Origin: Bacteroidota bacterium
GTDB lineage: Bacteria; Bacteroidota; Bacteroidia; B-17B0; Aurantibacillaceae
DNA length: 64,000 nt
Assembly: GCA_040758575.1 (NCBI GenBank)
Contig: JBFLVH010000008.1
Span: forward strand, 35,624 to 99,623
Direction: 5' to 3'
Position 1 is the first letter of the stretch. Every line of letters starts with the position of its first letter. A model generated the notes under the pieces. It did no database searches, was not told the DNA's origin, and was given only the letters and a program-made list of their open reading frames with translations. Below, piece after piece: positions 2,029 through 41,451 of this stretch. The position numbers were made by a program, and so were the translations under genes.

Positions 2029-2925
2029 ATGTCCATCAGTGTAAAAAATGTTACTAAAATTTATGGTAAGCAAAAAGCCCTGGATAATGTTTCATTTGAA
2101 ATAAAAAATGGAGAAATTGTAGGTTTTTTAGGACCTAATGGTGCGGGCAAAAGCACTATGATGAAAATTATTACAGGATACATTCCCCCAAGTAGTGGAA
2201 TGGTAGAAGTAAATGGTTTAAACATATTTGAACATTCTCTTGAAATAAAAAAACAAATCGGTTATTTACCTGAACAAAATCCTTTGTATTACGAAATGTA
2301 TGTAAAAGAATTTTTAGAGTTTATTGCTAAATTATATGGCATAAAAAGTGTTCATCAGAGAGTGAAAGAAATGATTGATATATGCGGTTTGGAAATTGAA
2401 CAACACAAAAAAATAGGTACACTTTCAAAAGGTTATAAGCAAAGAGTAGGTTTAGCGCAGGCACTTATCCATAACCCATCTGTACTAATATTAGATGAAC
2501 CCACATCTGGTTTAGACCCCAATCAATTAGAAGAAATCCGACAATTAATTAAAACACTTGGAAAGGATAAAACAGTAATGTTAAGCACTCATATTATGCA
2601 GGAAGTAGAAGCCGTGTGTAATAAAGTCATTATTATACATCGTGGTAAAATTGTGGCTTCTGATGATATTCAAAATATTAGAAAATCGGCGGGTACAAAA
2701 AAAATTATTGTTGAATTCTCCATAGCATTGAACAAACAACATTTTGCGGAATTATCGCTTCAAAGCATTGAAAAAATTTCTGATACACAATGGGCTATTG
2801 AAACAACTGATGAAGATATACCTAAAAAATTGATGAACATTGCCATTAAAAATAATTGCAGTATTGTTAGTTTGAATAAGTCAGAAATGAAATTAGAAGA
2901 AGTATTTAAATCTTTAACTCAATGA
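2029..2925 (+). CDS. gldA: Gliding-motility ABC transporter ATP-binding protein GldA
   Basis: Walker A GPNGAGKST, signature LSKGYKQR, Walker B LILDEPTSGLD. The N-terminus MSISVKNVTKIYGKQKAL resembles Flavobacterium GldA as I recall it. gldF-gldG lie downstream on the same strand. Confidence 0.8.
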   Translation: MSISVKNVTKIYGKQKALDNVSFEIKNGEIVGFLGPNGAGKSTMMKIITGYIPPSSGMVEVNGLNIFEHSLEIKKQIGYLPEQNPLYYEMYVKEFLEFIAKLYGIKSVHQRVKEMIDICGLEIEQHKKIGTLSKGYKQRVGLAQALIHNPSVLILDEPTSGLDPNQLEEIRQLIKTLGKDKTVMLSTHIMQEVEAVCNKVIIIHRGKIVASDDIQNIRKSAGTKKIIVEFSIALNKQHFAELSLQSIEKISDTQWAIETTDEDIPKKLMNIAIKNNCSIVSLNKSEMKLEEVFKSLTQ

Positions 2926-3015
2926 TGTGCGGTTATAAAAAATTGATTGTTTTTTTTCAATATTGTCCAAAATGGGTTAATTATTTTTTAAGACAATTTT
3001 ATTTTGAGTGGTTTA

Positions 3016-3050
3016 ATGTTTGTCTTTTGCCTGCGGCAAAAGACAAACAT
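3016..3050 (+). terminator. Perfect 16-bp hairpin downstream of gldA
   Basis: ATGTTTGTCTTTTGCC-tgc-GGCAAAAGACAAACAT. It is GC-enriched relative to its surroundings and has no U-tract of its own. Confidence 0.55.
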
Positions 3051-3058
3051 CTTAAAGA

Positions 3059-3115
3059 CCTCTCCCCTTTAATTCCCCTCTCCTTAAAAAGGAGAGGGGC
3101 TGGGGGTGAGGTTTT
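3059..3115 (+). terminator. Nested GC-rich hairpin followed by a T-run (rho-independent terminator candidate for gldA)
   Basis: Inner stem CCCCTCTCC-ttaaaaa-GGAGAGGGG. Outer stem CCTCTCCCC...GGGGTGAGG has one mismatch. TTTTT follows. Confidence 0.6.
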
Positions 3116-3140
3116 TCCGTGGAAAATATTGGTTTCTTTT

Positions 3141-4001
3141 ATGTTCCTATTGTTTTCTCTTTGTCTATCATTTGCTCAAAATAAAATGGATTCACTTGGA
3201 AGAAAACAAGGATACTGGAAAGTATATTATCCTAATTCCAAACACCTTGAATATGAAGGGTTTTTTAAAGATGATAAACCGCAAGGATTGTTCAAGTATT
3301 ATTATGAACACGATACTATTAAAGCCAAAGTTAATTTTATCAAAGAGGGTAAATATGCTTATGCTACCCTCTATCATATGAATGGAAAAATAATGGCAAA
3401 GGGTAAATATCTGGAACAAAAAAAAGATTCTGTGTGGGAATTTTACAATCAATTAGGACAATTACTCAACAGAGAAAATTATCTGCAAGGTCAAAGACAT
3501 GGATTAAGTATTACTTATTATGACTCAGGAAAAGTATATCAAAAAACACAATATATCTTAAATAAAAAACACGGGTATTTTATTGAATACTTCCCTGATG
3601 GAAAAATAAAAGGAATGGGCTATTACAAAAACGATTTGGCAGAAGGATATTTTGTTTATTATGCGCCTAACGGCACACGAGTTGGACTTATAACTTATCA
3701 AAATGGCGTGAGAAACGGACCTACTGTAATTAAAGATTTAGATGGAAAAATAACTGAAAAAACGCTTTACAAAAACGGTTATCCGGTTAAAAATGAAAAA
3801 GAATCAGAAATGTTTTTTCAACAACATCCTGAAATGCTTCATAATGAATTCGGTCTTGAAAAAGATATAATTAAACTTTTTGAAAACAGAAATGAAAAAT
3901 CATTTTTTATGGATAACATTACTACTGAAAACAAAAATGAACTTCTAAAAAATTTACAGCAAAAAAAATCTAATAATCCTAAACAAAAGATTAAAAAATA
4001 G
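3141..4001 (+). CDS. MORN-variant repeat protein (YwqK-like), secreted
   Basis: Repeated G(Y/L)xKxYYxNGxxxxEGxF-type units (GYWKVYYPNSKHLEYEGFF, GLFKYYYEHDT, HGLSITYYDSGKV, HGYFIEYFPDGKI, EGYFVYYAPNG). ATG at 3141 gives the signal-like MFLLFSLCLSFAQ. The ORF-track start at 2922 runs through the two hairpins. Confidence 0.7.
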   Translation: MFLLFSLCLSFAQNKMDSLGRKQGYWKVYYPNSKHLEYEGFFKDDKPQGLFKYYYEHDTIKAKVNFIKEGKYAYATLYHMNGKIMAKGKYLEQKKDSVWEFYNQLGQLLNRENYLQGQRHGLSITYYDSGKVYQKTQYILNKKHGYFIEYFPDGKIKGMGYYKNDLAEGYFVYYAPNGTRVGLITYQNGVRNGPTVIKDLDGKITEKTLYKNGYPVKNEKESEMFFQQHPEMLHNEFGLEKDIIKLFENRNEKSFFMDNITTENKNELLKNLQQKKSNNPKQKIKK

Positions 4002-4004
4002 ATT

Positions 4005-4028
4005 TAAATGATTCTATAAAATCATTTA
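4005..4028. terminator. AT-rich 9-bp hairpin between convergent genes
   Basis: TAAATGATT-ctataa-AATCATTTA, between the MORN gene stop (4001) and the peptidase stop (4071). Confidence 0.45.
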
Positions 4029-4070
4029 GAAATTTATTAAGATATTTTAAAAGGAAGTTTTTTACTTTAA

Positions 4071-5207
4071 TTAAAATTTACCAAGCTCATCATTTATTAG
4101 TTTAAACATTTCTGTTTCAGTTATTTTGAACTCATAATATATTTGCTTTAAACAACTATCTGCATTATCTTTAAAATCTTTTAATCTCAAAAGTCCTTTA
4201 ATACCAAATTTTTTGTATATTACATTTACTATTAATGCTGAAGACACATAAGCATCAGTAGAATTTGGTTTTTCATTAATTGTTTTGAATAAATTTTTAT
4301 TAAATGGATAGTATTTACTTTTAAATACTTTAAGTAAGTTAGAATAAGATTGATTTAAACTTCCTCCAAAAAATGTTGCTATACCTTCACTTAAAAAATG
4401 CCCTGTTTTTATTTTATTATCAACAACAAGATGCACTAATTCATGTGGATAATAAAATATTCCTTTTCCGGAAATTATCATTTTAGCGTCATAAAATGTC
4501 TTTCCAGTAGTATATCCTGCGTAAAAAAAATTAAATCCTAATAAATACCCTAAACTCTCTGGACTTTTACAAACCACAAAATTCACAGAATCTATTTTTG
4601 CTGAAAAAATATAAATCATACTATCAAGAAAATTTTTTGCTTTTTCCATTTCTAATTCATTTGGGTTTAAAGATGGTTCAATAATGTATTTTATTTTGTC
4701 ATAATTATATTTTTTCCAATTTGCTATTCTTTCTTCAAAAAGATTAAAAAGATACAAATTATTGTTTTGTTTTAAAATTCCAATTTCAACAATTGCAAAT
4801 GGGTTGGAGTTTAAAGATGCATTAGTGTCATTTGGCGTAAAATTAAAATGACAAAATGAGGTAGTTATATAGCAAGTATCACCTTGAGAACTAATAGAAA
4901 GAATATATGGTTTAAAATAATTTAGTAAAGATTTTTGGGGATACTGAAATAGAGATGAATAAAACAATGAGTAGTCATTCCCAAATTGTTTTATTTGAGA
5001 TGGTAGCCAATATTTTTTTCTAATAGAATCATTTTCTTCATACAAAAAATTTATCCAAAAATTCAAATACTCTTTACATGAAGATTGATTTAATGAAATA
5101 CTTGCTAAAGAATGTAAATAAAATTTAGGGGATGAGTTCTCTTTTTCTTGTGAAAAAACAAAACTTAAATAAAAACAAAATAAAATAGAAAATAATATAT
5201 GTTTCAT
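4071..5207 (-). CDS. Secreted HExxH metallopeptidase (peptidase MA-like), last gene of the lanthipeptide operon
   Basis: Signal peptide MKHILFSILFCFYLSFVFSQ. HELVH followed 15 residues later by SEGIATFFGG (gluzincin-like HExxH...E, resembling Peptidase_MA_2). Its start overlaps the lanM stop as ATGA (5204-5207). Confidence 0.6.
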   Translation of the reverse strand: MKHILFSILFCFYLSFVFSQEKENSSPKFYLHSLASISLNQSSCKEYLNFWINFLYEENDSIRKKYWLPSQIKQFGNDYSLFYSSLFQYPQKSLLNYFKPYILSISSQGDTCYITTSFCHFNFTPNDTNASLNSNPFAIVEIGILKQNNNLYLFNLFEERIANWKKYNYDKIKYIIEPSLNPNELEMEKAKNFLDSMIYIFSAKIDSVNFVVCKSPESLGYLLGFNFFYAGYTTGKTFYDAKMIISGKGIFYYPHELVHLVVDNKIKTGHFLSEGIATFFGGSLNQSYSNLLKVFKSKYYPFNKNLFKTINEKPNSTDAYVSSALIVNVIYKKFGIKGLLRLKDFKDNADSCLKQIYYEFKITETEMFKLINDELGKF

Positions 5208-8089
5208 AAAGATTTGTAATCTCTTGGTTTATTTGATGTAGGAGGATGGAGCAGTAAAATAGAGGGCATATTATAATCAAATAATAATTTTAATATATTA
5301 TATGCAATACCAGAATTACCCAAAAACAAACCATTCAATGAAAACTTTCCATTTTTAAATCCAGTTTTCCAATTTAATTCACCAGTAGTATCCTTTTTAT
5401 AAATTTCAAACACAATTTTATTTTTTGTTAAAGTTATTAAATTGTGATTTTTAGTTTTATATCCAATCGCCATTAACGTTTCTAAATTTCCTAACATTCC
5501 ATGACATAAACAATGTGAATGTTCGAATCCTTCTTTAAGAATAGTCCCTTTTATTTTATTCCAGTTAATATCAAAGTTAATAGGCAGAAGATTTTCAATT
5601 TCTAAATAAGCATTTAATATACCAGATGAACCATGGCACCAAGAAGGGGATGTTATTAAAAAATCAGAATATCGTAAATCTCTCCAACCTTGATAACTCT
5701 CAAAAAAATAATTGTTATTATATTTTATAATACTATTTAAAAACATAATATCTTTTTTTGTGTAACCAAATAATTCATAATATTTTGATAGAGCATATAA
5801 AATACCTGCATTACCATGTGCAAAACCAACTAAATATTTAAATTTATTGCATTCCCATGTTATGCCATTGGATGTAATAATTGCTGATTTTAGTATTTTT
5901 TGATATATTTTTTGAATAGGTAGTATTAAAGAATTTAGTTTTTCATTTTTATAGTAGTCAATAAGTAAAATCAATAAACCAGAACATCCATTTAATACAT
6001 CTATAAATGTATCAAATCTTATGTTATTTTTAACATATGGAACTAATTTCTGTTCAAATAATTCATTTAAATTTGTATTTTCAATATCGCCAATTATTTT
6101 ACTATAATGCCAATAAAAATAAAGGGTTGAAAATGGAAAATGGTAAGGTGAAAAAAGATAATATGATTTTGAGGGATTAAAATTTTTAAAAGTAAAAAGA
6201 GATTTATTCATAATAGATTGTGCGACCCTTTTGTATTTTGATTCTTTTGTAAATTTATATAAGTATAAATAAAACAATCCCAATCCATCTAATCCGTCGT
6301 AAATTCCAAAATTTTTCGGAGCAAACTCCCATTGACCAACTCTTCCTACATTAATATCTATCCATTGATATGATTTACCTACACGTATCCTATCATTTAG
6401 TACCTTTTCTGCTATTTGAATAATGTGTTTTTTTATTTTTTTCGTATCATAATTATAAGGTAATGAATTATTGTTTAAACTTTTCTTTTCAAGAATCTTA
6501 TTGTCTTTACTTTGTTCAAATTGATAAAAACACGAAATAGATTTTTCAATATATGAAATTTGATCTTTAATTACAGTATCAGATAATTTGTTTATTCTAT
6601 TAACCATCGAATGAAACCCAGACTTTTTTAAAATATAATACCTGTTGTTTTTATCAAAAATAAATTTTTTAAATGGTTTTGTATAAAATATAGGATAATC
6701 TAAATTTTGTAATTCTTTTATTTCAGATTCAATTAATTCCTTTGGGAAACAATCTTTATCATATGAACTATACAAATAATTCAAAATTTTTATTCTTTTA
6801 GAATAACTTTTTAAATTATCTGGATGTAAACTCTCTTTAAGAATTATATTATAGACATTTGTATGTCTCATTAACACTCTAGTACTAATATTATATTGAT
6901 TAATTAAGCTTTTAACAATGGAAATTAACCACTTTTTATTAATCATAATGAATCTACAACAACTATCAAAACCGTCGCAAATTTTCGAGCACATAACATC
7001 TATGGCTATCTTTTTATCAGATTTACTTGGAATGTGATAAGAATATTTAGGAAAGCTTTGAATTAAGTATTCTATCTTTTTGTTTCTACTAAAAAATAAT
7101 TTTGTGTGTGAAGAATGAATTGCTTCAAGGGATATACCACCAAAATTTAATCCTACATTATCTATTTTATTTGGTGTCCAAAAAGGAAGAAGTCCAGTGC
7201 CAATAACAGATTCTTTATAGTAATTTTCAATTAAAGGATAAGTATCGTTAATTGATGATTTTATTATGGGTTTAAATAAACATTCAGTGTCAATAAAAAC
7301 AGGTATTGTTTTCTTTACAATTATATTATCAGCAATTATATCAGATATTCCTAAAGAATAAAATAGAGCAAGGTATTTTCCAATATTCTCGTAATATAAC
7401 TTAACCCCCTTCTTTGAATTATTAGGTACATAATTAACAAACTCTTCCCAATAATAATTACATTTTATTAGCCTCTTTGGAAATATAAAAGGCAAATTAT
7501 AACCTTTTTCATTAATTTTTCTTATAATACATTCAAAAACTAAACTACTTTCATAAGGTTTTACTTTATATGCAATTTTTGAACCAGATTGAAATATTAT
7601 CACTGTATGTGTTTGACCATTGTTGTGAAAATCACCAATTGGCCATTGAATGGAGATGGGCACACTATCTATACCAAAATAATTCTGGATATCTTTTTTA
7701 TCATTTAAAAATCTGTCAATAAGATCAGAAAAATATTTGACATAATTTTGAATTGAAATATCAAGAATTCTTTTGAGTTGAGGATATTTACTAAAACAAG
7801 AATAAAATAATTCTTTTTTTCTAATAAACAAAATATTCTTGCGACCATCTTTATAAGTATCACTTAAGCTATTATATGTGTAAAGTATGGGAAATTTAAT
7901 TAATTCAAAAATTTGTATTGATATTGCTTCTGAAATAGAATTTATAAACAAAATGAGATTTTCATTATAGTTAATACTTTTTTGAAGTAATATAAATACA
8001 CTATTTTTAATTTCATTAAAATCATTATGACTAATTTCTTCATCAAATTCCTTTCTTAAATATTCATCACTTGAAAAATAAAATTTCAT
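5204..8089 (-). CDS. lanM: Class II lanthipeptide synthetase (LanM): N-terminal kinase-like dehydratase plus C-terminal LanC-like cyclase
   Basis: 961 aa. Motifs: GDFHNNGQTHTVIIFQSGSKIAYKVKP, DIIADN...FIDTE, SVIGTGLLP, RVLMRHTNVY. Cyclase motifs: YDGLDGLGLF, GFAHGNAG (H758), SWCHG (C818), CLCHG (C862/H863). Confidence 0.9.
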   Translation of the reverse strand: MKFYFSSDEYLRKEFDEEISHNDFNEIKNSVFILLQKSINYNENLILFINSISEAISIQIFELIKFPILYTYNSLSDTYKDGRKNILFIRKKELFYSCFSKYPQLKRILDISIQNYVKYFSDLIDRFLNDKKDIQNYFGIDSVPISIQWPIGDFHNNGQTHTVIIFQSGSKIAYKVKPYESSLVFECIIRKINEKGYNLPFIFPKRLIKCNYYWEEFVNYVPNNSKKGVKLYYENIGKYLALFYSLGISDIIADNIIVKKTIPVFIDTECLFKPIIKSSINDTYPLIENYYKESVIGTGLLPFWTPNKIDNVGLNFGGISLEAIHSSHTKLFFSRNKKIEYLIQSFPKYSYHIPSKSDKKIAIDVMCSKICDGFDSCCRFIMINKKWLISIVKSLINQYNISTRVLMRHTNVYNIILKESLHPDNLKSYSKRIKILNYLYSSYDKDCFPKELIESEIKELQNLDYPIFYTKPFKKFIFDKNNRYYILKKSGFHSMVNRINKLSDTVIKDQISYIEKSISCFYQFEQSKDNKILEKKSLNNNSLPYNYDTKKIKKHIIQIAEKVLNDRIRVGKSYQWIDINVGRVGQWEFAPKNFGIYDGLDGLGLFYLYLYKFTKESKYKRVAQSIMNKSLFTFKNFNPSKSYYLFSPYHFPFSTLYFYWHYSKIIGDIENTNLNELFEQKLVPYVKNNIRFDTFIDVLNGCSGLLILLIDYYKNEKLNSLILPIQKIYQKILKSAIITSNGITWECNKFKYLVGFAHGNAGILYALSKYYELFGYTKKDIMFLNSIIKYNNNYFFESYQGWRDLRYSDFLITSPSWCHGSSGILNAYLEIENLLPINFDINWNKIKGTILKEGFEHSHCLCHGMLGNLETLMAIGYKTKNHNLITLTKNKIVFEIYKKDTTGELNWKTGFKNGKFSLNGLFLGNSGIAYNILKLLFDYNMPSILLLHPPTSNKPRDYKSL

Positions 8090-8146
8090 CTCGCACTAAC
8101 TTCATTCATACAACCAGAAAATCCGGTCTAATTATTATCAAATTTA

Positions 8147-8386
8147 CTATTCTAAACCTATTGCAAACTCATATCTATCTACAACAAGTTTGAAACCAGA
8201 TGGAGATTCAGAAATATCAGCCTTTTTTATTTGAACTTTAGGTACATCACTAAAACAACAATGTACAACCGTGCCATCACACCCGCTTCCACTACCAGTT
8301 CCAGATGACCCTAATGCTCCATTGTATCTTTCAACTAGGAATTCTAACTCCTCTTTTCTCATTTTAATTACTTCAGTTAAAGCCAT
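8147..8386 (-). CDS. lanA: Putative lanthipeptide precursor (LanA) with a central Cys/Ser/Thr core and a C-terminal leader-like extension
   Basis: 79-aa ORF 57 nt upstream of lanM on the same strand. Core is SSGTGSGSGCDGTVVHCCFS (3 Cys, 7 Ser/Thr). Leader motif FLVERYNGALG is echoed near the C-terminus as LVVDRYEFAIG. Confidence 0.7.
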   Translation of the reverse strand: MALTEVIKMRKEELEFLVERYNGALGSSGTGSGSGCDGTVVHCCFSDVPKVQIKKADISESPSGFKLVVDRYEFAIGLE

Positions 8387-8661
8387 AAATTTAATTTTTG
8401 ATGTTATTATTGGCTGTAAAAATAAGTAAAAAGATATTTATTTACAAATAAAAAATCACTTTTTTCCTAAATATTTTTAAATAGTTTTTTAAGTTGCTGT
8501 ATTTCAGTAATTTAAATTTTTAAAATTATTTATAATTTAAAGTATTAAAAATATACCTCCTCCTCTTTTTTGTTCTTTTTAAACCTCATATTCCTATTTC
8601 TAAACTTACCTATCCTTTAATATCATTAATGTTACTATTTAGCTTATAATTAAACCTCAAT

Positions 8662-8738
8662 GACGCAAAGATTTTTATGACAAGAATTGCACGAATTATT
8701 TTTCAATTTTTAGTATTCATTTTTCACATCTTTGCGCC
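8662..8738. repeat. Inverted repeat GACGCAAAGAT ... ATCTTTGCGCC (10 of 11 matched) with 55-nt spacer
   Basis: Arms at 8662-8672 and 8728-8738. A third CGCAAAG copy lies at 8829-8835. Located in the 585-nt non-coding gap. Confidence 0.4.
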
Positions 8739-8860
8739 TTAGCATTAAAAAATTTAATAGTGATGAATAGTAACTTATTAATTAAATTTTTCAATTCCAC
8801 TTAAATACTAATTTTACACTATATTCGCCGCAAAGTATAATAGTAAGTTTTTAGTTTTTA

Positions 8861-8925
8861 ATGCTGACGCTAGCGGTCAGCATGCTGATATTTTGCGTAG
8901 CAAAATCGTCAGCATTTTGATTTTA
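8861..8925 (+). terminator. Two adjacent GC-rich hairpins, the second followed by a T-run, 47 nt upstream of gldF
   Basis: Hairpin A: ATGCTGAC-gctagcg-GTCAGCAT (8861-8883). Hairpin B: ATGCTGA-t-ATTTTGC-gta-GCAAAAT-cg-TCAGCAT (8882-8915), then TTTTGATTTT. The U-tract exists only on the + strand. Confidence 0.5.
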
Positions 8926-8971
8926 GAATTTGAAATGAAAAAAACTAAACACTGAAAAAACTCAACACTAA

Positions 8972-9712
8972 ATGAAAGCATTATTTATCAAAGAAATACG
9001 AAGTTACTTAAATTCTCTGACAGGGTTTTTAGTGATACTTGTATTTTTAATTGTAACTGGTTTATTCTTGTGGATAATACCTAATGAAGCAACGGGCACT
9101 AACATTCTTGAAAATGGTTTTGCATCATTAGAAAGTTTGTTTTCCCTGGCTCCTTGGGTGTTTTTAATTTTAATTCCTGCGATTAGTATGAAATTATTTG
9201 CAGAAGAAAACAAAGCGGGCACATTAGAACTTTTACTCACTAAGCCATTAACCGAAATGCAAATTGTTTTATCTAAATACTTTGCAGGTTTTGTAATCAT
9301 CGTATTTTCACTACTACCAACCTTAATTTATTACTACACTGTTTATCAACTTGGCTTGCCAAAAGGTAATTTAGACACAGGCGGCACCTGGGGTTCATAT
9401 ATTGGGCTTTTCTTTTTAGCATCTGTATTTTTGTCTATTGGATTGTTTACTTCTGTTATCACAGATAATCAAGTGATTGCATTTATTTTTGGACTTATTA
9501 TGTGTTATTTATTTTACAATGGATTTGAATATCTGGCTACTTTCTTTTCTAATGGCTCTGTTGCACTTTTTATTTCTTCATTAGGAATTAACTATCATTA
9601 TTATAGTATGAGTAGAGGTGTTATTGATTCAAGAGATGTGCTCTATTTTTTAACTGTCATAACAATTTTTCTATTGCTCACCAGGTTAATTTTACAAAGT
9701 AGAAAATGGTAA
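8972..9712 (+). CDS. gldF: Gliding-motility ABC transporter permease GldF
   Basis: 246-aa ABC-2 type multi-TM protein. N-terminus MKALFIKEIRSYLNSLTGFLVILVFL is GldF-like. Overlaps gldG by 7 nt. Confidence 0.8.
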   Translation: MKALFIKEIRSYLNSLTGFLVILVFLIVTGLFLWIIPNEATGTNILENGFASLESLFSLAPWVFLILIPAISMKLFAEENKAGTLELLLTKPLTEMQIVLSKYFAGFVIIVFSLLPTLIYYYTVYQLGLPKGNLDTGGTWGSYIGLFFLASVFLSIGLFTSVITDNQVIAFIFGLIMCYLFYNGFEYLATFFSNGSVALFISSLGINYHYYSMSRGVIDSRDVLYFLTVITIFLLLTRLILQSRKW

Positions 9713-11409
9713 ATCAAATGCAAAACATTAAATATTCATCAAAGAAAAAAGATATAGGAAATTTTATCGCTTCCGTTATTGCCTTATTAATTATTAATTT
9801 TATTTTGAGTTTTTATTTTTTTAGATGGGACTTGACTGCTGAAAAAAGATATACTCTTTCTCCTTTCACAAAAGAATTTTTGAAAAATATTGATGATATT
9901 GTTTATTTTAAAATTTATTTAAGTGGCGACTTACCACCTGAATTTAATAAATTAAAAAAAGAAGTAAAAGAAATGCTGGATGAAATGCGAATCATTAACG
10001 ATAACATTCAGTATGAATTTGTTGATATTAATAGCGTTGGAAATAAAGAAGATATTAGAAATCTTGAAAAACAATTGTATGATAAAGGCATTGTGCCCGA
10101 ACAGGTAATAGAAAAAAAACAAAATAAAACATCAGAAAGTTTAGTTTGGCCTGGCGCACTTGTGTCTTACAAAGGAAAAGAAACTGTATGGCAAATTTTT
10201 TCAAGACAACTTGGTTATACTCCACAAGAAAACATTAATCACGCACTAAACGAAATTGAATATGGCATATGCAAAAGTATTCACAAACTCAAAAGAAAAA
10301 AGCGTCCTGAAATATCCATAGTTGAAGGGCACAAAGAATTAGACACTCTTCGTTTATATGACCTTATTCGTACTTTGTCAGAAGAATACAATATATCAAG
10401 AATCAATATCAATCATAAATTATATGCACTAAAGAATTTAGACGCTATCATTATTGCAAAACCTGATACACTCATTGATGAAAAAGATAAATTCATCATT
10501 GACCAATTTATAATGAAAGGTGGTAAAGTGCTATGGATGTTAGACCCTGTAAAAATTAATATGGATTCCTTTCGCCTGAAGGGATATTCTCTAGCGCTGA
10601 ACAATGAAACCAATTTAGAAGATATGCTATTTAGATATGGAGTACGACTAAACCCCGATTTAATCCAGGATTTACAATGTGCTGCAATACCTGTAAATAT
10701 TGGCTTTTCCAAAGGACAACCCAATTTTAAATTATTCCCCTGGATATTCTATCCTTTGATTATGCCTACTTCCAATCATCCTATTGTCAAAAATATGGAT
10801 TTGATTAAAACCGAATTCGTTAGCACCATAGATACATTAAGCACATCAGGTATTAAAAAAACCATATTGCTTACATCTTCTAAAAACTCAAGAGTAGCCC
10901 CAGTGCCATTCAGGGTATCGCTGGCTATCACGCAGTTCAAATTAAAAGAAAGTGCATTCAATCAAGGACCTAAACCAATTGCAGTTTTGTTAGAAGGAAC
11001 ATTTAAATCTTTATACGCCAACCGAATACCAACTATAATTATGGAAGACAGCACCATTCAGTTCAAAGAAGTTAGCGTTCCTAACAAAATGATTGTTATT
11101 TCAGATGGAGATATTGCCAAAAACGACATCAACAGAAGCACTGGTGTAATATATCCATTAGGTTACGACAAATATACTAATCAAACTTTTGCTAACAAAC
11201 AATTTATAGTTAATTGCATCAATTATCTATTAGATGAAACAGGACTGATGCAACTTCGTTCCCGTGAAGTAAAATTAAGATTATTAGACCAAAAGAAAAT
11301 AGCACTTCAAAAAACTAAATGGCAAATTTACAATGTGCTCTTACCACCTGTGATAATTAGTATTCTGGTTATTTTACAATATTATTGGAGAAAAAGAAAA
11401 TATACTTGA
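9706..11409 (+). CDS. gldG: Gliding-motility ABC transporter accessory protein GldG
   Basis: 567 aa with N- and C-terminal TM helices and the RWDLTAEKRYTLSP motif typical of GldG. Coupled to gldF. Confidence 0.8.
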   Translation: MVNQMQNIKYSSKKKDIGNFIASVIALLIINFILSFYFFRWDLTAEKRYTLSPFTKEFLKNIDDIVYFKIYLSGDLPPEFNKLKKEVKEMLDEMRIINDNIQYEFVDINSVGNKEDIRNLEKQLYDKGIVPEQVIEKKQNKTSESLVWPGALVSYKGKETVWQIFSRQLGYTPQENINHALNEIEYGICKSIHKLKRKKRPEISIVEGHKELDTLRLYDLIRTLSEEYNISRININHKLYALKNLDAIIIAKPDTLIDEKDKFIIDQFIMKGGKVLWMLDPVKINMDSFRLKGYSLALNNETNLEDMLFRYGVRLNPDLIQDLQCAAIPVNIGFSKGQPNFKLFPWIFYPLIMPTSNHPIVKNMDLIKTEFVSTIDTLSTSGIKKTILLTSSKNSRVAPVPFRVSLAITQFKLKESAFNQGPKPIAVLLEGTFKSLYANRIPTIIMEDSTIQFKEVSVPNKMIVISDGDIAKNDINRSTGVIYPLGYDKYTNQTFANKQFIVNCINYLLDETGLMQLRSREVKLRLLDQKKIALQKTKWQIYNVLLPPVIISILVILQYYWRKRKYT

Positions 11410-37028: not shown

Positions 37029-38393
37029 TTACATGCTTTCCAGCGAATACTTTCTAATGATATTGAGTAATGATTGGTAATAATAATATTTTTGGGCTAT
37101 TTCAATAACTTTTGCTTGTGATTGTAAATAATATAATTCACGGGTGTTGATAGTGAAAAGGTTGCTTTCTCCCACTTTAAAGTTTTGAATTTCTGCCTGC
37201 AACATTTGATAATATCTATTATTCAACTGAATAGCAAAATTTAATTGATTAAAGTATTGTAAATAATTGTTGAAATAAATTTTAAGTTTGTTTTGTATTT
37301 GTTGAGATTTGAATTGAAATTCATTTTTAGTTTGTTGAATTTTTAGATTTATCAATTTGAGTTCTGCTCTTTCTTTTCTTAATAACAATGGAAATGATAT
37401 GTCTATACCCCATTTATAATTATTGGTATTTAGGGGATAATTGTAGTTGTCAGAAAATGGTTGTAGTAAAAAGTTGTATTTGATATTTAATTGTGGTTTT
37501 AAAAATTCAATTTTTAATTTTTTTTCTAATTGAAGTTGTTTTAGTTTGATTTGATAAGTTTTGAGTTCAGGATAATTAGGGATAATACTTGTAGTATCTA
37601 GATTTTGAAAAGTAATATTATTGGTAATAACGGGTGCTATAAAATTAGTATCAATGCTGTTATTTAAGTGCGTGAGTAATTGAAACTTTGAATTTTGATA
37701 ATCTAATAATGCTTTTTGATAAGACAATAAAAAATTTTGATATTGATTTCCTGCATCCAATGTATCAATGGGAGCGTTTTCTCCAGTTTTTACAGCGTTT
37801 TTTACATTCGTATATCTTTCATAAGATGTTTTGACTAAATTTTTGTACATTAACATTAAATTAAATTTTTCAAAGAAATTCCAATAATCTTGAATTATCC
37901 ATTCTAATGTGTTGATAATTTGAGCGTTCAAAAAAACTTTATTATTTCTACTTAATAATCGGGCAGTTTGTAAATTCAATCTTCTTTCATCGTAAAATAA
38001 ATTTCTTAAAACAGGAACACTTGCTCCTAATGAGAACAAGCCAGAAGGGGGGATGTAAGAATCATTATTGATATACATTCCTGATGCATAATTATAGTTT
38101 AAATTCAAATCAATTCCAGGATAAGTAGGTTGTTTAATTTCAAAGTTGTAATAAAGGAAGTAATTTTTATTATCAAAAAATTTATTTTGTAAGTCATAAG
38201 ATAATTTGGGGTCAAATTGTCCTTTTGCTTTTAAGAGATATGCTTTAAAGGTTTGAGTAGTTGTAATTTGTGCGTTTTGAATTAGTGGATGATTTTGTAA
38301 AATATAATCCAAAAACTTTTGAAAAGTGAGAGTATCTTGTGAGAAGAGAGAAGAAGCAAAAATTAAAAGAAATATTTTTAGTGATATTTTCAT
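37029..38393 (-). CDS. TolC-family outer-membrane efflux protein
   Basis: 454 aa, signal peptide, two-fold repeat of coiled/helical OEP segments. 4-nt overlap with the HlyD gene. Confidence 0.75.
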   Translation of the reverse strand: MKISLKIFLLIFASSLFSQDTLTFQKFLDYILQNHPLIQNAQITTTQTFKAYLLKAKGQFDPKLSYDLQNKFFDNKNYFLYYNFEIKQPTYPGIDLNLNYNYASGMYINNDSYIPPSGLFSLGASVPVLRNLFYDERRLNLQTARLLSRNNKVFLNAQIINTLEWIIQDYWNFFEKFNLMLMYKNLVKTSYERYTNVKNAVKTGENAPIDTLDAGNQYQNFLLSYQKALLDYQNSKFQLLTHLNNSIDTNFIAPVITNNITFQNLDTTSIIPNYPELKTYQIKLKQLQLEKKLKIEFLKPQLNIKYNFLLQPFSDNYNYPLNTNNYKWGIDISFPLLLRKERAELKLINLKIQQTKNEFQFKSQQIQNKLKIYFNNYLQYFNQLNFAIQLNNRYYQMLQAEIQNFKVGESNLFTINTRELYYLQSQAKVIEIAQKYYYYQSLLNIIRKYSLESM

Positions 38394-39739
38394 TTTTCTT
38401 TTGACTTATCAGATTTTGATTTGATGCTTTGTTCTTTTTGGGCATCAACATTGATATAAAAATCAGGTGGGAATCCATTGATTTGACGCCATATTTCATA
38501 CCATATTGGAACGGTTTTAAGTAAGGCAATACAGTTTGCTCCACCGCCTACATAAAGGTCTTTTGGCCAGGGATGGTCGGAAGTATCAGGCTCTACAAGC
38601 ACTCTATACATTCCATTTGGAGAGATAAATTTATCAATAGAATAAACTTTACCACCAAAGGTTCCATAACTTACGGAGGGCCATCCTGAAAACACGATGG
38701 CAGGCCATCCATCAAATTGAATGCGGATTTTACTTCCTTTTGCAAGTAGATTTACATCTAATGGTTTGACATACATTTCTACACCTATTTTGTAGTGTGC
38801 AGGCATTATATTCACAATAGGTTCGCCAGGATAAACTATTTCACCTACACCTGTTTTGATGGTTTTAAGAATGTAACAATCTTGCGGGGCGATGATATTA
38901 TAATTGCTTGTTCTTGTAGCATAATTAGAAGACGCCACCTGTAGTTTGAGTAATTCACTTTGAGCATCCATCAGAGCGCTTAAAGCAGAAAATTTATCTG
39001 ACTCTGCTTTGGAAATTTTTTCATTAAATTCATTTTCAATATTATGAAGTTCTACTTCTAATGAATAGTATTCATTCAAAGTGGCTTGATATTTATTAAA
39101 GGAAGCAACTTCTTTGGATTGTGCTTCTGCGAATTTTACTCTTCTGTTTTCAAGGTCGGTAGTAGATTTTAATCCTTGTTTATGAAGTTCTTCCATTCTT
39201 TCATATTGTTTTTTAGCGGCTTCTAAATTTTGAACGGCTGCTAACCACTCATTACTATCTGCAAGTAGTTTTAGTTTGGCTTGCTGAATTTTGTATAGGA
39301 TTTGTTGTCTTTTCAAATTACGAATTTTAATAAGAGCATCAATTTGAGTATTTAATGCGTTAATTTTATTTTCGTAACTGACAATGGCTTTTTCTTTGGC
39401 TTTGAGTTGTTCAGAAACTCTTTGAAGTAATTTGGGGTCAAAATAATCTGTTTTTATTTCTGCTATTTTAAGGATAGTGTCGCCTTTTTTTACGAAGTCC
39501 CCTTCTTTGTAAAACCATTTTTCAATTTTTCCTTCAATGACAGATTGAAGTGTTTGAGACCGAGATGATTGGTCTAACGAGGTAACATATCCTTTTGAGC
39601 GAAAATTTTGTGTCCATGGAAGAAATAATAAAATAAGAAGTAAATAAAAAAGCCATTTAAGAAAAGTAAAAAAAGGATTTTTTAATTTAATTTGAATCAA
39701 ATAGGATTGGAACTTTGAATAATATTTTTCTTTCTGCAT
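38390..39739 (-). CDS. HlyD-family membrane-fusion / secretion protein
   Basis: N-terminal TM helix, lipoyl-like EGDFVKKGDTILKI, long coiled coil, beta-barrel C-terminus. 449 aa. Confidence 0.8.
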   Translation of the reverse strand: MQKEKYYSKFQSYLIQIKLKNPFFTFLKWLFYLLLILLFLPWTQNFRSKGYVTSLDQSSRSQTLQSVIEGKIEKWFYKEGDFVKKGDTILKIAEIKTDYFDPKLLQRVSEQLKAKEKAIVSYENKINALNTQIDALIKIRNLKRQQILYKIQQAKLKLLADSNEWLAAVQNLEAAKKQYERMEELHKQGLKSTTDLENRRVKFAEAQSKEVASFNKYQATLNEYYSLEVELHNIENEFNEKISKAESDKFSALSALMDAQSELLKLQVASSNYATRTSNYNIIAPQDCYILKTIKTGVGEIVYPGEPIVNIMPAHYKIGVEMYVKPLDVNLLAKGSKIRIQFDGWPAIVFSGWPSVSYGTFGGKVYSIDKFISPNGMYRVLVEPDTSDHPWPKDLYVGGGANCIALLKTVPIWYEIWRQINGFPPDFYINVDAQKEQSIKSKSDKSKEK

Positions 39740-39756
39740 TGTTAGAATATGTTTTT

Positions 39757-41451
39757 TTAGTATGGATAATTTCCTATATCATCATAATATTTAAGTTTTC
39801 CTTCTTTTAATAGAAGGATTTTATTAAAATAATTTTTATATTTTGTATCGGAGGCGCTTACTATTGTTGTCCATCCATATTGTTTGGTATTACAGATAAT
39901 ATCCAATAAAACAGGGACATCTTTTTCATAAATATCATTAAATATATTTTCAAAAATAATTAATTTGGGTTTTGTAACAATTGCCCTTAAAAATAATATT
40001 TTTGCAATGAATGATTTAGAATAGTTGTGTCCATAAGTCAGCATTTCTGTTTCATATTTATCAGGTAAATTATTGATGGTTTTATCCAGACCAATTTTTG
40101 ATGAAATGCTAATTAAAAAATCATAGTCATAATTTCTTCCAAGATGAATATTTTCAAGTATTGTTCCTTTGAAAATTATATCGCTATCTAAATAAGTTCC
40201 AATATTAAATCTCAATGCGTTTATATCATAAAGATAAATATCCTTATCATTAATAAAAATATCCCCTTTTGTAGGGAAGAGCAAAGTAGCAAATATTTTT
40301 TGCAAAGTTGTCTTGCCTGAATAACTTTCTCCAACTAATAAAACATTTTCAAATTCATTGATTTGTAAGTTAATATCATCTAAAATATTTTTATCAGAAT
40401 CAGGATAACGAAAGGATACATTTTTTAATTCAATTTTTATATAAGGTAAATCTTTAATTTTTTCTTGCAATAATTGTGGCAATGTTTCTTCTTTTAAATC
40501 TAATACTTCATGAATTTTTGCAAGTGAAACAATCATATCGTAAATGGTTCTAATCAAAAAGACCATTTTATCAAAAGAATTGACAAGTATAGAAATGACA
40601 ATTTCAGAAGCAACAAATTCTCCAATGTTCATTTGTTGTTCAATAACAAGAATGCTTCCAACAATTACAAAGAACATTATAGTGATAAATTTTACTATGT
40701 TTAATAAAATAAATTGTTTTTCAAGTGTGAAATAATGTTTGTTTCTATAATAATAGTAATTTTTGATAATGTTATCTAATTTTTGAAAATGCAATTCTGT
40801 AATTCCTGCTAATTTTAAGGAGGCAGAAGCGCTACCTGTCTCTTCAATCCAATAAGCAGTATCGTATTTATATTTTGAGTATTGAATTCCACTTTCCAAC
40901 CCTTTGTTGAATGTCCATTTAACACCAAAATAAATTACAACAAATAAAATTAAAATTAAAATAATAAATATCGGATGATAAAAACTTAATAATAGCATAG
41001 ATAAAATAATGATGATAGATGAAAAAGAAAAGTCAATAAGAATTTTTTGAACAATCTTTTGAAGAGTAACTACATCAAAAAAACGATTAGCAAGGTCTCT
41101 GGAATTTTGATAAATCATTTCAAGGTAGTGAAGGGCAGGGAATTTTTGAATGAACTTGAAAGAGAAATCAGCAAATATTTTTTGTTCAATAAACTCAATA
41201 ATTCTTAATTGATATATTTGAACAATGGCTGAAAAAATAATACTTATTGCTAACATAAACATAATTAGTACCAAAGAAACAGAATATGCCGCTCCTTGTA
41301 TAAAGTTAATAAGCAATTGAATACTAATAGGAAAAATCAAAGAAAAGAAAGACATTATTAAACCTAATGCATATATTTGTAATATTTCTTTTTTGTATTC
41401 ATTGAGTAATTGCAAAAAGTGATGCCAAATATTTTTTGTGTTATTTGCCAT
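39757..41451 (-). CDS. ABC exporter half-transporter (TMD-NBD) with a degenerate nucleotide-binding domain
   Basis: 564 aa with a 6-TM ABC_membrane-like N-half. Walker A GESYSGKTT is present. Signature is YSKSF (for LSGGQ), Walker B is LIIFEN (for hhhhDE), the H-loop His is absent (VSASD) and the Q-loop Gln is absent (YLDSD). No C39 domain. Confidence 0.75.
   Translation of the reverse strand: MANNTKNIWHHFLQLLNEYKKEILQIYALGLIMSFFSLIFPISIQLLINFIQGAAYSVSLVLIMFMLAISIIFSAIVQIYQLRIIEFIEQKIFADFSFKFIQKFPALHYLEMIYQNSRDLANRFFDVVTLQKIVQKILIDFSFSSIIIILSMLLLSFYHPIFIILILILFVVIYFGVKWTFNKGLESGIQYSKYKYDTAYWIEETGSASASLKLAGITELHFQKLDNIIKNYYYYRNKHYFTLEKQFILLNIVKFITIMFFVIVGSILVIEQQMNIGEFVASEIVISILVNSFDKMVFLIRTIYDMIVSLAKIHEVLDLKEETLPQLLQEKIKDLPYIKIELKNVSFRYPDSDKNILDDINLQINEFENVLLVGESYSGKTTLQKIFATLLFPTKGDIFINDKDIYLYDINALRFNIGTYLDSDIIFKGTILENIHLGRNYDYDFLISISSKIGLDKTINNLPDKYETEMLTYGHNYSKSFIAKILFLRAIVTKPKLIIFENIFNDIYEKDVPVLLDIICNTKQYGWTTIVSASDTKYKNYFNKILLLKEGKLKYYDDIGNYPY

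Follow-up and report, generated by a model that had tools for sequence, protein, structure and literature searches.

Can three genes, with no transporter beside them, make up a working class II lanthipeptide pathway, and what would an exported metallopeptidase do in it? The question is raised by a cassette in a 64,000-nucleotide stretch of DNA from a Bacteroidota bacterium (assembly GCA_040758575.1, contig JBFLVH010000008.1, positions 35,624–99,623; the whole stretch is referred to below as the window). In this cassette lanA, the gene for a 79-aa precursor peptide, is followed by lanM, encoding a 961-aa class II lanthipeptide synthetase, and by a gene for a 378-aa exported protein with an HExxH motif. 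An earlier account drawn from the letters of this DNA (the sequence-only reading) had reported the three open reading frames (ORFs), the last of them with a signal peptide, a 57-nt gap between the first two and an ATGA overlap between the lanM stop and the start of the peptidase gene. These are all found at the coordinates listed in Table 1, and the LanM, LanC and HExxH motifs that it quoted can all be read in the translations. Our analysis points to a class II lanthipeptide module of three genes that is functional and moves horizontally. We give a probability of about 0.6 to the reading that LanA and LanM form a working pair and that the exported peptidase acts on the modified peptide.

LanM and its cognate precursor peptide

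Sequence comparison leaves no reasonable doubt that the 961-aa protein is a LanM. The hidden Markov model (HMM) searches proposed for it gave matches to both expected families, PF13575 (DUF4135; 1e-70, 239 bits, cut-off 29) and PF05147 (LANC_like; 1.6e-46, 159 bits, cut-off 23), and the protein also scores 529.7 bits against TIGR03897 (lanti_2_LanM; cut-off 304). Matches to the solved LanMs LicM2 (2e-62) and CylM (3.9e-38) accompany these. The dehydratase (kinase/eliminase) spans residues 102–470 and the LanC-like cyclase residues 591–946. The profile scores bear out the earlier assignment of the locus to class II.

Twelve LanM homologues are 36–54% identical to the window protein, after which identity drops to 25% for ordinary LanMs. 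The clade so delimited is rare: an alignment-based scan of 185,579 species-representative genomes finds it in only five loci, all in metagenome-assembled genomes (MAGs), from Bacteroidales, Bacteroidia and Ca. Kapaibacterium. A scan of the same kind with the single LanM sequence as query returned no relatives, and an alignment query was needed.

The catalytic residues of this clade can be compared with those of CylM, in which D252, H254, R506 and T512 serve phosphate elimination, K274, D347, H349 of the DxH motif, N352 and D364 serve the kinase reaction, and C875, C911 and H912 hold the cyclase zinc (PMC4550811). Mapped by motif and by alignment to LicM2, the zinc ligands of the window cyclase are C817 (SWCHG), C861 and H862 (CLCHG), and these, together with H757 (GFAHGNAG), the His expected in the GxxHG motif, are invariant in 14 clade members. 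The elimination residues D152 and H154 (WPIGDFH) and R403 and T409 (RVLMRHT) are likewise invariant, with the spacing seen in CylM. So are K174, D249, N254 and D266, which correspond to CylM K274, D347, N352 and D364 and comprise the ATP lysine, the catalytic Asp and the metal ligands of the kinase.

Wherever upstream sequence of a clade member is available, LanM is immediately preceded by a LanA homologue, and in decayed LanM loci the precursor is gone as well. The family is small, with just nine relatives in 5.8 billion proteins searched and more in the loci that we fetched, about 13 members in all. Pairwise ratios of nonsynonymous to synonymous differences (pN/pS) are 0.08–0.28 (about 0.2), with pS mostly 0.6–0.75. 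On these comparisons lanA is a real gene under purifying selection; the possibility that the 79-aa ORF is spurious is ruled out by its conservation and pN/pS. Its earlier identification as lanA is upheld by the family alignment, the pN/pS values and the position upstream of lanM. LanA has no Pfam or NCBIfam match at E≤0.01 and none in PADLOC, and appears to belong to no described precursor family.

The peptide comprises an N-terminal leader-like block (residues 1–25), a Ser/Thr/Cys-rich segment (26–45), a variable linker (46–58) and a C-terminal block (59–79), the conserved sequence of which is SPSGYKLVAGDCEFAIGLE. In the alignment, S26, T29, S31, C35, C42, C43, S60 and S62 are invariant, as is an N-G-A-L-G-S stretch. 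Conservation spans the whole length of LanA, which is unusual, and is as strong in the C-terminal block as in the N-terminal one. The C-terminal block is recognizable even in the paralogues of Ca. Kapaibacterium, where T29, S31, C35 and C42 are also kept.

The window LanA lacks the C-terminal Cys common to most homologues and has a Tyr instead (GDCEF becoming DRYEF). As a result of this replacement, two parts of the peptide resemble each other, LVERYNGALG (16–25) and VVDRYEFAIG (67–76).

A conserved gene order with an exported HExxH protein

Alignment and modeling suggest that the third gene encodes an exported gluzincin-like protein of an undescribed family. Gluzincins (clan MA(E)) carry HExxH and, further downstream, a Glu as third zinc ligand; here H254, E255, H258 and E273 (HExxH-x14-E) are invariant in the 15 aligned sequences, and the zinc motif is kept in 21 of the 21 family members checked, including those encoded apart from any LanM. 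Every aligned member opens with a hydrophobic signal sequence followed by a Gln, and cleavage of the window protein is predicted between VFS and QEK; a Gln after the signal peptide is the rule in Bacteroidota. The AlphaFold2 (AF2) model of the protein is confident, with a predicted local distance difference test score (pLDDT) of 89.7. In Foldseek searches it is closest to the peptidase domains of M9 collagenases (7.7e-6), followed by M1 aminopeptidases, with E values up to 1e-2 and template modeling (TM) scores of 0.32–0.42 only. The N-terminal part of the model resembles NTF2-like folds, and the C-terminal domain is of the HExxH-x14-E catalytic type and may have a thermolysin-like fold.

This protein and nine family members match neither PF13485 (Peptidase_MA_2), the model that the sequence-only reading had put forward for it, nor any other peptidase model in Pfam, even at E≤1. 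The window protein matches no Pfam model of any kind, and for it there is also no NCBIfam match, no PADLOC match and no sequence relative in the PDB. A search of the family profile against PDB sequences returned a single ferritin match, which we judged to be due to chance. An exhaustive HMM search recovers 1,087 representatives of the family at 50% identity, 291 of them with E≤1e-30 and nearly all of about 380 aa.

In several lineages the gene for this protein is translationally coupled to lanM through the kind of ATGA overlap noted earlier in the window. The order lanA-lanM-peptidase occurs in at least nine lineages, all metagenomic, across which LanM identity is 36–54%. They are the window group and loci L009, L013, L015, L016, L018, L057/58 and L059, together with L022 and L027, which lie at contig ends. 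ATGA overlaps between lanM and the peptidase gene are found in the window, L015, L016, L018 and L059, and in a LanM remnant in L024. The cassettes occupy unrelated genomic contexts across lineages. The survey of neighborhoods of the closest LanM homologues that had been suggested thus finds the peptidase after LanM in at least nine lineages, the Ca. Kapaibacterium loci being without it.

The cassette has also moved as one unit. The window is 100% identical to L001 over a tract of 5,447 bp (Table 1), and to L005 over positions 3753–9180. Sequence on either side of the tract is only 71–84% identical, and the distal gene order differs. The tract covers the 3′ end of a gene for a MORN-repeat protein, the entire cassette and the first ∼220 bp of gldF, so that the breakpoints fall inside the MORN gene and gldF. 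Such complete identity within diverged flanks indicates a very recent exchange of the cassette through homologous recombination, between lineages that had diverged. The cassettes of other lineages lie among transposases, Mu-like prophage or defense genes. Class II clusters have been reported to colocalize with mobile and defense genes (PMC12715929), and the contexts of the cassette match this.

A working module is supported by the identification of LanM, the invariance of its catalytic residues apart from the DxH His, the constant company of LanA and LanM, the conserved gene order and the start/stop overlaps. The peptidase motif, signal peptide and modeled fold, the precedent of zinc metallopeptidases as established leader proteases in class III, and the movement of the cassette as one unit, argue for it as well.

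Proposed export and cleavage, and the alternatives

In the mechanism that we favor, LanM would bind the N-terminal block of LanA in the cytoplasm, through roughly residues 1–25 (a helix is predicted at 10–19). It would phosphorylate T29 and S31, and probably also S26 and T38, and eliminate the phosphate, and would then add C35, C42 and C43 to the dehydro residues to form two or three thioether rings within residues 26–45. The modified LanA, with its conserved ends still attached, would cross the inner membrane via a transporter encoded elsewhere, and the metallopeptidase would cut it on the periplasmic side. The most likely outcome would be trimming of the leader, perhaps between Ala and Leu of the invariant N-G-A-L-G-S, which would leave a hydrophobic residue at P1′; the peptidase may also remove the conserved C-terminal block. 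Export followed by cleavage outside would be analogous to the action of NisT plus NisP in class I.

As to what the cut achieves, we regard activation of the peptide (maturation) as a tentative assignment, somewhat short of even odds, and a protective, inactivating cut as doubtful, activation being somewhat the more likely of the two. The observations that weigh against the mechanism as a whole concern the linkage of the peptidase, the leader and exporter, and the kinase loop of LanM.

Linkage to LanM is essentially lacking across the wider family (1,087 representatives). Within the close clade, intact orphan peptidases occur in L007/L023 (P0003), L025 (P0010) and L028 (P0011). In a neighbor-joining tree P0003 groups with P0002 and the LanM-linked peptidase of L016, to which it is 81% identical, and P0010 groups with P0009, both with bootstrap values of 100; the L024 lineage joins the latter pair at 88. 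In two further lineages, L011/L012 and L024, an intact peptidase directly follows a C-terminal remnant of LanM with an open reading frame, and lanA is absent. These remnants lie at 9820–9996 in L011 and 295–525 in L012 (58–76 aa), and at 9396–9944 in L024 (182 aa, with the ATGA kept). Conversely, in the Ca. Kapaibacterium loci (L014, 442–2082; L019, 8108–9746) a LanM of 36% identity is preceded by four precursor paralogues in tandem, and the peptidase is absent.

The orphans and the copies beside LanM remnants suit a different role, in which the exported metallopeptidase protects its own cell by degrading the mature lanthipeptide in the periplasm, while leader removal and export fall to unlinked host functions. 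We consider this somewhat unlikely, though it is a serious alternative. Retention of an intact gene beside a decayed LanM is a pattern known for orphan immunity genes, and the orphans nested with full support in LanM-linked clades fit it too. A cassette that sweeps between species must spare its new host, and the periplasm is the site where an incoming peptide would act. NSR, an S41 serine protease that cuts nisin outside the cytoplasm, is a resistance gene of non-producers and stands outside biosynthetic operons; it may serve as a model for such a role by analogy, although its serine protease fold is unlike the cassette peptidase. To our knowledge, however, no protease acts as a producer immunity protein for lanthipeptides. 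In addition, many distant homologues occur where the LanM clade is not found, so that the orphans may simply have kept an ancestral function of another kind; the LanM remnants may stem from deletions that are recent, and the pathway would still be left without a leader protease. The comparisons suggest a peptidase that is functionally coupled to the cassette, yet of selective value without it, a combination that suits a leader protease no better than it suits immunity, resistance or an independent, ancestral function.

Several of these loci have other features. In L007 (7524–14562), orphan P0003 has paralogous secreted proteins (549 and 500 aa) for neighbors, both with a CGHC motif at the C terminus. 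The same locus encodes another HExxH protein, of 467 aa, which like the 549- and 500-aa proteins has no Pfam match; at an hhalign probability of 0.9% it was rejected as a relative of the peptidase family. In the most divergent peptidase-containing cluster (L013, 14069–17008), a gene for a 979-aa M16 peptidase begins 2 nt after the HExxH gene, and Mu-like prophage and toxin-like genes are found close by; a 979-aa M16 gene also lies 3 kb upstream of the LanM remnant in L011. Downstream in the Ca. Kapaibacterium loci are genes for a protein with an HHH domain and for a putative lipoprotein of 357 aa that has no assigned family. L017 (BPGX01000019.1, 9622–13489) is a second lanA-lanM copy of the KatS3mg027 MAG, on a contig with many ORFs resembling transposases and integrases, one of which, transposase-like, follows LanM where the peptidase gene would be expected.

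The second group of contrary observations concerns the route out of the cell. A double-glycine leader has G at −2, G/A/S at −1, E/D at −8, L/M at −7 and a hydrophobic residue at −4 (PMC7268733). LanA falls outside this consensus: its sole G-A pair, G22-A23, has L16 at −8, V17 at −7 and Y/H20 at −4, and other registers fail too. No LanT with a C39 domain is encoded within ∼10 kb of the window cassette or in L009, L013, L015, L016, L018 and L059, and there is no linked exporter in any cassette lineage examined. LanFEG, LanI, an S8 protease and a regulator are all missing beside the window cassette and the homologous cassettes examined, and the Peptidase_S8 (LanP) domain is absent from the cassette and its flanks. 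The earlier statement that transporter, LanP, immunity and regulator genes are not linked therefore holds here and in the relatives examined. Its description of the system as self-contained is too strong, because LanM is cytoplasmic and the peptidase exported, so that an unlinked exporter is required.

Two candidates within the window were considered for this step. An operon resembling type I secretion systems (T1SS), encoding OEP, HlyD and an ATP-binding cassette (ABC) protein without C39, lies at 37029–41451 on the minus strand, 31 kb from the cassette. Its ABC_membrane exporter (39757–41451) is the sole one in the window and aligns to models of peptidase-containing ABC transporters (PCATs) and T1SS from position ∼136 only; it thus has no C39 domain. 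The ATPase has a Walker A motif and appears otherwise degenerate, with no LSGGQ, LIIFEN for the Walker B Asp-Glu and no H-loop His, and we have downgraded the operon as an export route on account of this nucleotide-binding domain. GldAFG, the adjacent ABC-2 transporter, was rejected as a general explanation for export or immunity, because its linkage is found in one lineage group only.

The third concerns the kinase. The His of the DxH motif (H349 in CylM) is replaced by I251 in the window LanM and by I, V or T in 14 of 14 aligned clade members, which have a loop of the form SDI[IVT]xDN in place of DxHxxN (window positions 7327–7345, LanM residues 249–254). The distant LanMs P0038–P0041 retain D[FL]HxEN. 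The clade-wide absence of this His means that the dehydration chemistry may be altered. CylM-H349A has a small residual activity (PMC4550811), so that activity of the His-less clade is still possible. The clade would thus either use another base, for which the near-invariant D/E253 is a candidate, or carry out an altered chemistry.

The altered loop is also compatible with a less conventional product. LanA may be a small folded protein, its N- and C-terminal blocks packed together to display a lanthionine-stapled loop at residues 26–45, with LanM acting as the stapling enzyme, possibly by altered chemistry. The whole-length conservation of LanA, extending to the Ca. Kapaibacterium paralogues, is in keeping with this, as is the AF2 model, in which pLDDT is 74–86 at residues 1–20 and 50–78 (strand, helix and β strands) versus ∼52 in the Ser/Thr/Cys segment. 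However, this model, built from nine sequences, is of moderate confidence (mean pLDDT 69.6; predicted TM score 0.54) and is a lead only, Foldseek found no structural neighbor for it at E≤0.001, the conserved C-terminal follower might just as well serve in recognition or export, and the presence of the peptidase suggests processing. A broader form of this idea, in which the conserved ends are either a folded scaffold or a two-ended recognition or export signal around the stapled loop, with a re-engineered kinase loop in LanM and a gluzincin for periplasmic protection or processing, is unlikely; the folded product in its strict form is less likely again.

Least probable of all is a general peptidase role in the periplasm of Bacteroidota, in which the protein would not act specifically on the lanthipeptide and would be co-transcribed as a hitch-hiker or serve some other step such as nutrient peptide turnover: the large family of uniform length, with ∼25 distant metagenomic members in unrelated housekeeping contexts, and the Ca. 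Kapaibacterium loci that do without it would agree with this, but a gene order and start/stop overlap kept despite LanM divergence and differing contexts are hard to explain without a functional link.

Of the earlier proposal of a RiPP system (for peptides made on the ribosome and modified after translation) with a different maturation protease, the LanM locus, the cognate precursor and the exported HExxH protein are borne out. The role of maturation protease is tentative, the peptidase family being large and mostly unlinked to LanM, with orphans nested in the linked clade.

Compared with known class II systems (lacticin 481, CylM, LicM2), the cassette is similar in having a LanM with DUF4135 and LanC-like domains, zinc ligands and elimination residues, and a small Ser/Thr/Cys precursor gene immediately upstream. 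It differs in the absence of a PCAT, immunity genes, a regulator and a double-glycine leader, in the conserved C-terminal block of LanA, in the replacement of the DxH His by I/V/T, and in the ∼25% identity of its LanM clade to other LanMs. With neither a PCAT nor a double-glycine leader, the cluster is not canonical class II.

With nisin, a class I product, the proposed pathway would share its logic of modification in the cytoplasm, export with the leader attached and cleavage outside the membrane. NisP is an S8 subtilisin, however, and NisT is encoded in the cluster, whereas the cassette has a gluzincin-like protease and no linked exporter. Reported maturation enzymes of classes I and II are serine and cysteine proteases, and those of class III include zinc peptidases, namely M1 AplP and M16B PttP1/P2 (PMC8960859; PMC7268733). 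The latter are zinc dependent, as the 378-aa protein is predicted to be, and Foldseek places its model near M1 and M9 domains. In contrast, the class III enzymes process peptides of that class, are for the most part encoded outside the clusters and fall into defined MEROPS/Pfam families, whereas the 378-aa protein matches no Pfam model and has an NTF2-like domain, a signal peptide and a gene coupled to a class II lanM. An exported gluzincin-like protein encoded in the cluster, next to a LanM of class II, thus appears to be new, and no description of a lanA-lanM-peptidase cassette was found in the literature searched.

If the module works as proposed, uncultured Bacteroidota, a group with very few characterized lanthipeptides, would gain a LanM clade and a family of precursors, and the module's three genes in 4.3 kb would be a compact target for heterologous expression. 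Either as a class II leader protease of a new type or as an immunity mechanism based on proteolysis, the peptidase would provide a first functional handle on a large exported HExxH family (>1,000 representatives at 50% identity), for which Pfam has no model. Loss of the DxH His throughout the clade would test ideas on how LanM kinases deprotonate Ser/Thr, and the 5.4-kb tract would be a clean natural case of a bacteriocin-type cassette sweeping species via homologous recombination.

Gene layout and flanks

The coordinates of the cassette and its flanks are collected in Table 1. The neighbors are gldA, the MORN-repeat gene, gldF and gldG, together with housekeeping genes; GC content is ∼24% in the cassette and ∼30% in the flanks. 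The three gld genes each exceed their NCBIfam equivalog cut-offs, which makes the earlier phrase “gliding Bacteroidota” a fair one. Their adjacency to the cassette is confined to the lineage group of the window, and the other cassette-bearing lineages have unrelated flanks.

Table 1. Features of the cassette and its surroundings, in window positions
Feature	Position	Strand	Basis
lanA, 79-aa precursor peptide	8147–8386	−	ORF
lanA-lanM spacer, 57 nt	8090–8146	−	sequence read directly
lanM, 961-aa class II lanthipeptide synthetase	5204–8089	−	PF13575, PF05147, TIGR03897, LicM2/CylM matches
Gene for 378-aa exported, gluzincin-like protein (predicted)	4071–5207	−	alignment, AF2 model, Foldseek
Intergenic region, 585 bp, AT-rich, between divergent lanA and gldF	8387–8971	.	
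Tract with signs of recent exchange, 5,447 bp	3753–9199	.	blastn and MAFFT identity profiles
Flank: gldA, gliding-motility ABC ATPase, outside the system	2029–2925	+	TIGR03522, 425.6 bits (cut-off 402.6)
Flank: gldF (8972–9712) and gldG (9706–11409), outside the system	8972–11409	+	TIGR03518 and TIGR03521, above cut-offs
MORN-repeat ORF, 359 aa as listed	2922–4001	+	

The cassette promoter is presumably sited in the intergenic region between lanA and gldF. Scans for sigma-70 promoters and for the Bacteroidetes −7 element (TAnnTTTG) gave matches at or below the expectation from shuffled sequence. The lanA-lanM spacer holds a weak 6-bp hairpin and one TAAATTTG match; the TAnnTTTG match at 8139–8146 is not above chance.

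The start of the MORN-repeat ORF as listed is probably too early. A signal-peptide-like segment lies at residues ∼68–88, and in L003, where the sequence is identical, the gene call gives 314 aa.

Just upstream of gldF, within the 100%-identical tract, is a perfect palindrome, ATGCTGAC-N7-GTCAGCAT, at 8861–8883. It has a third inverted copy 37 nt off (8860–8920 overall), and was flagged as terminator-like on the plus strand.

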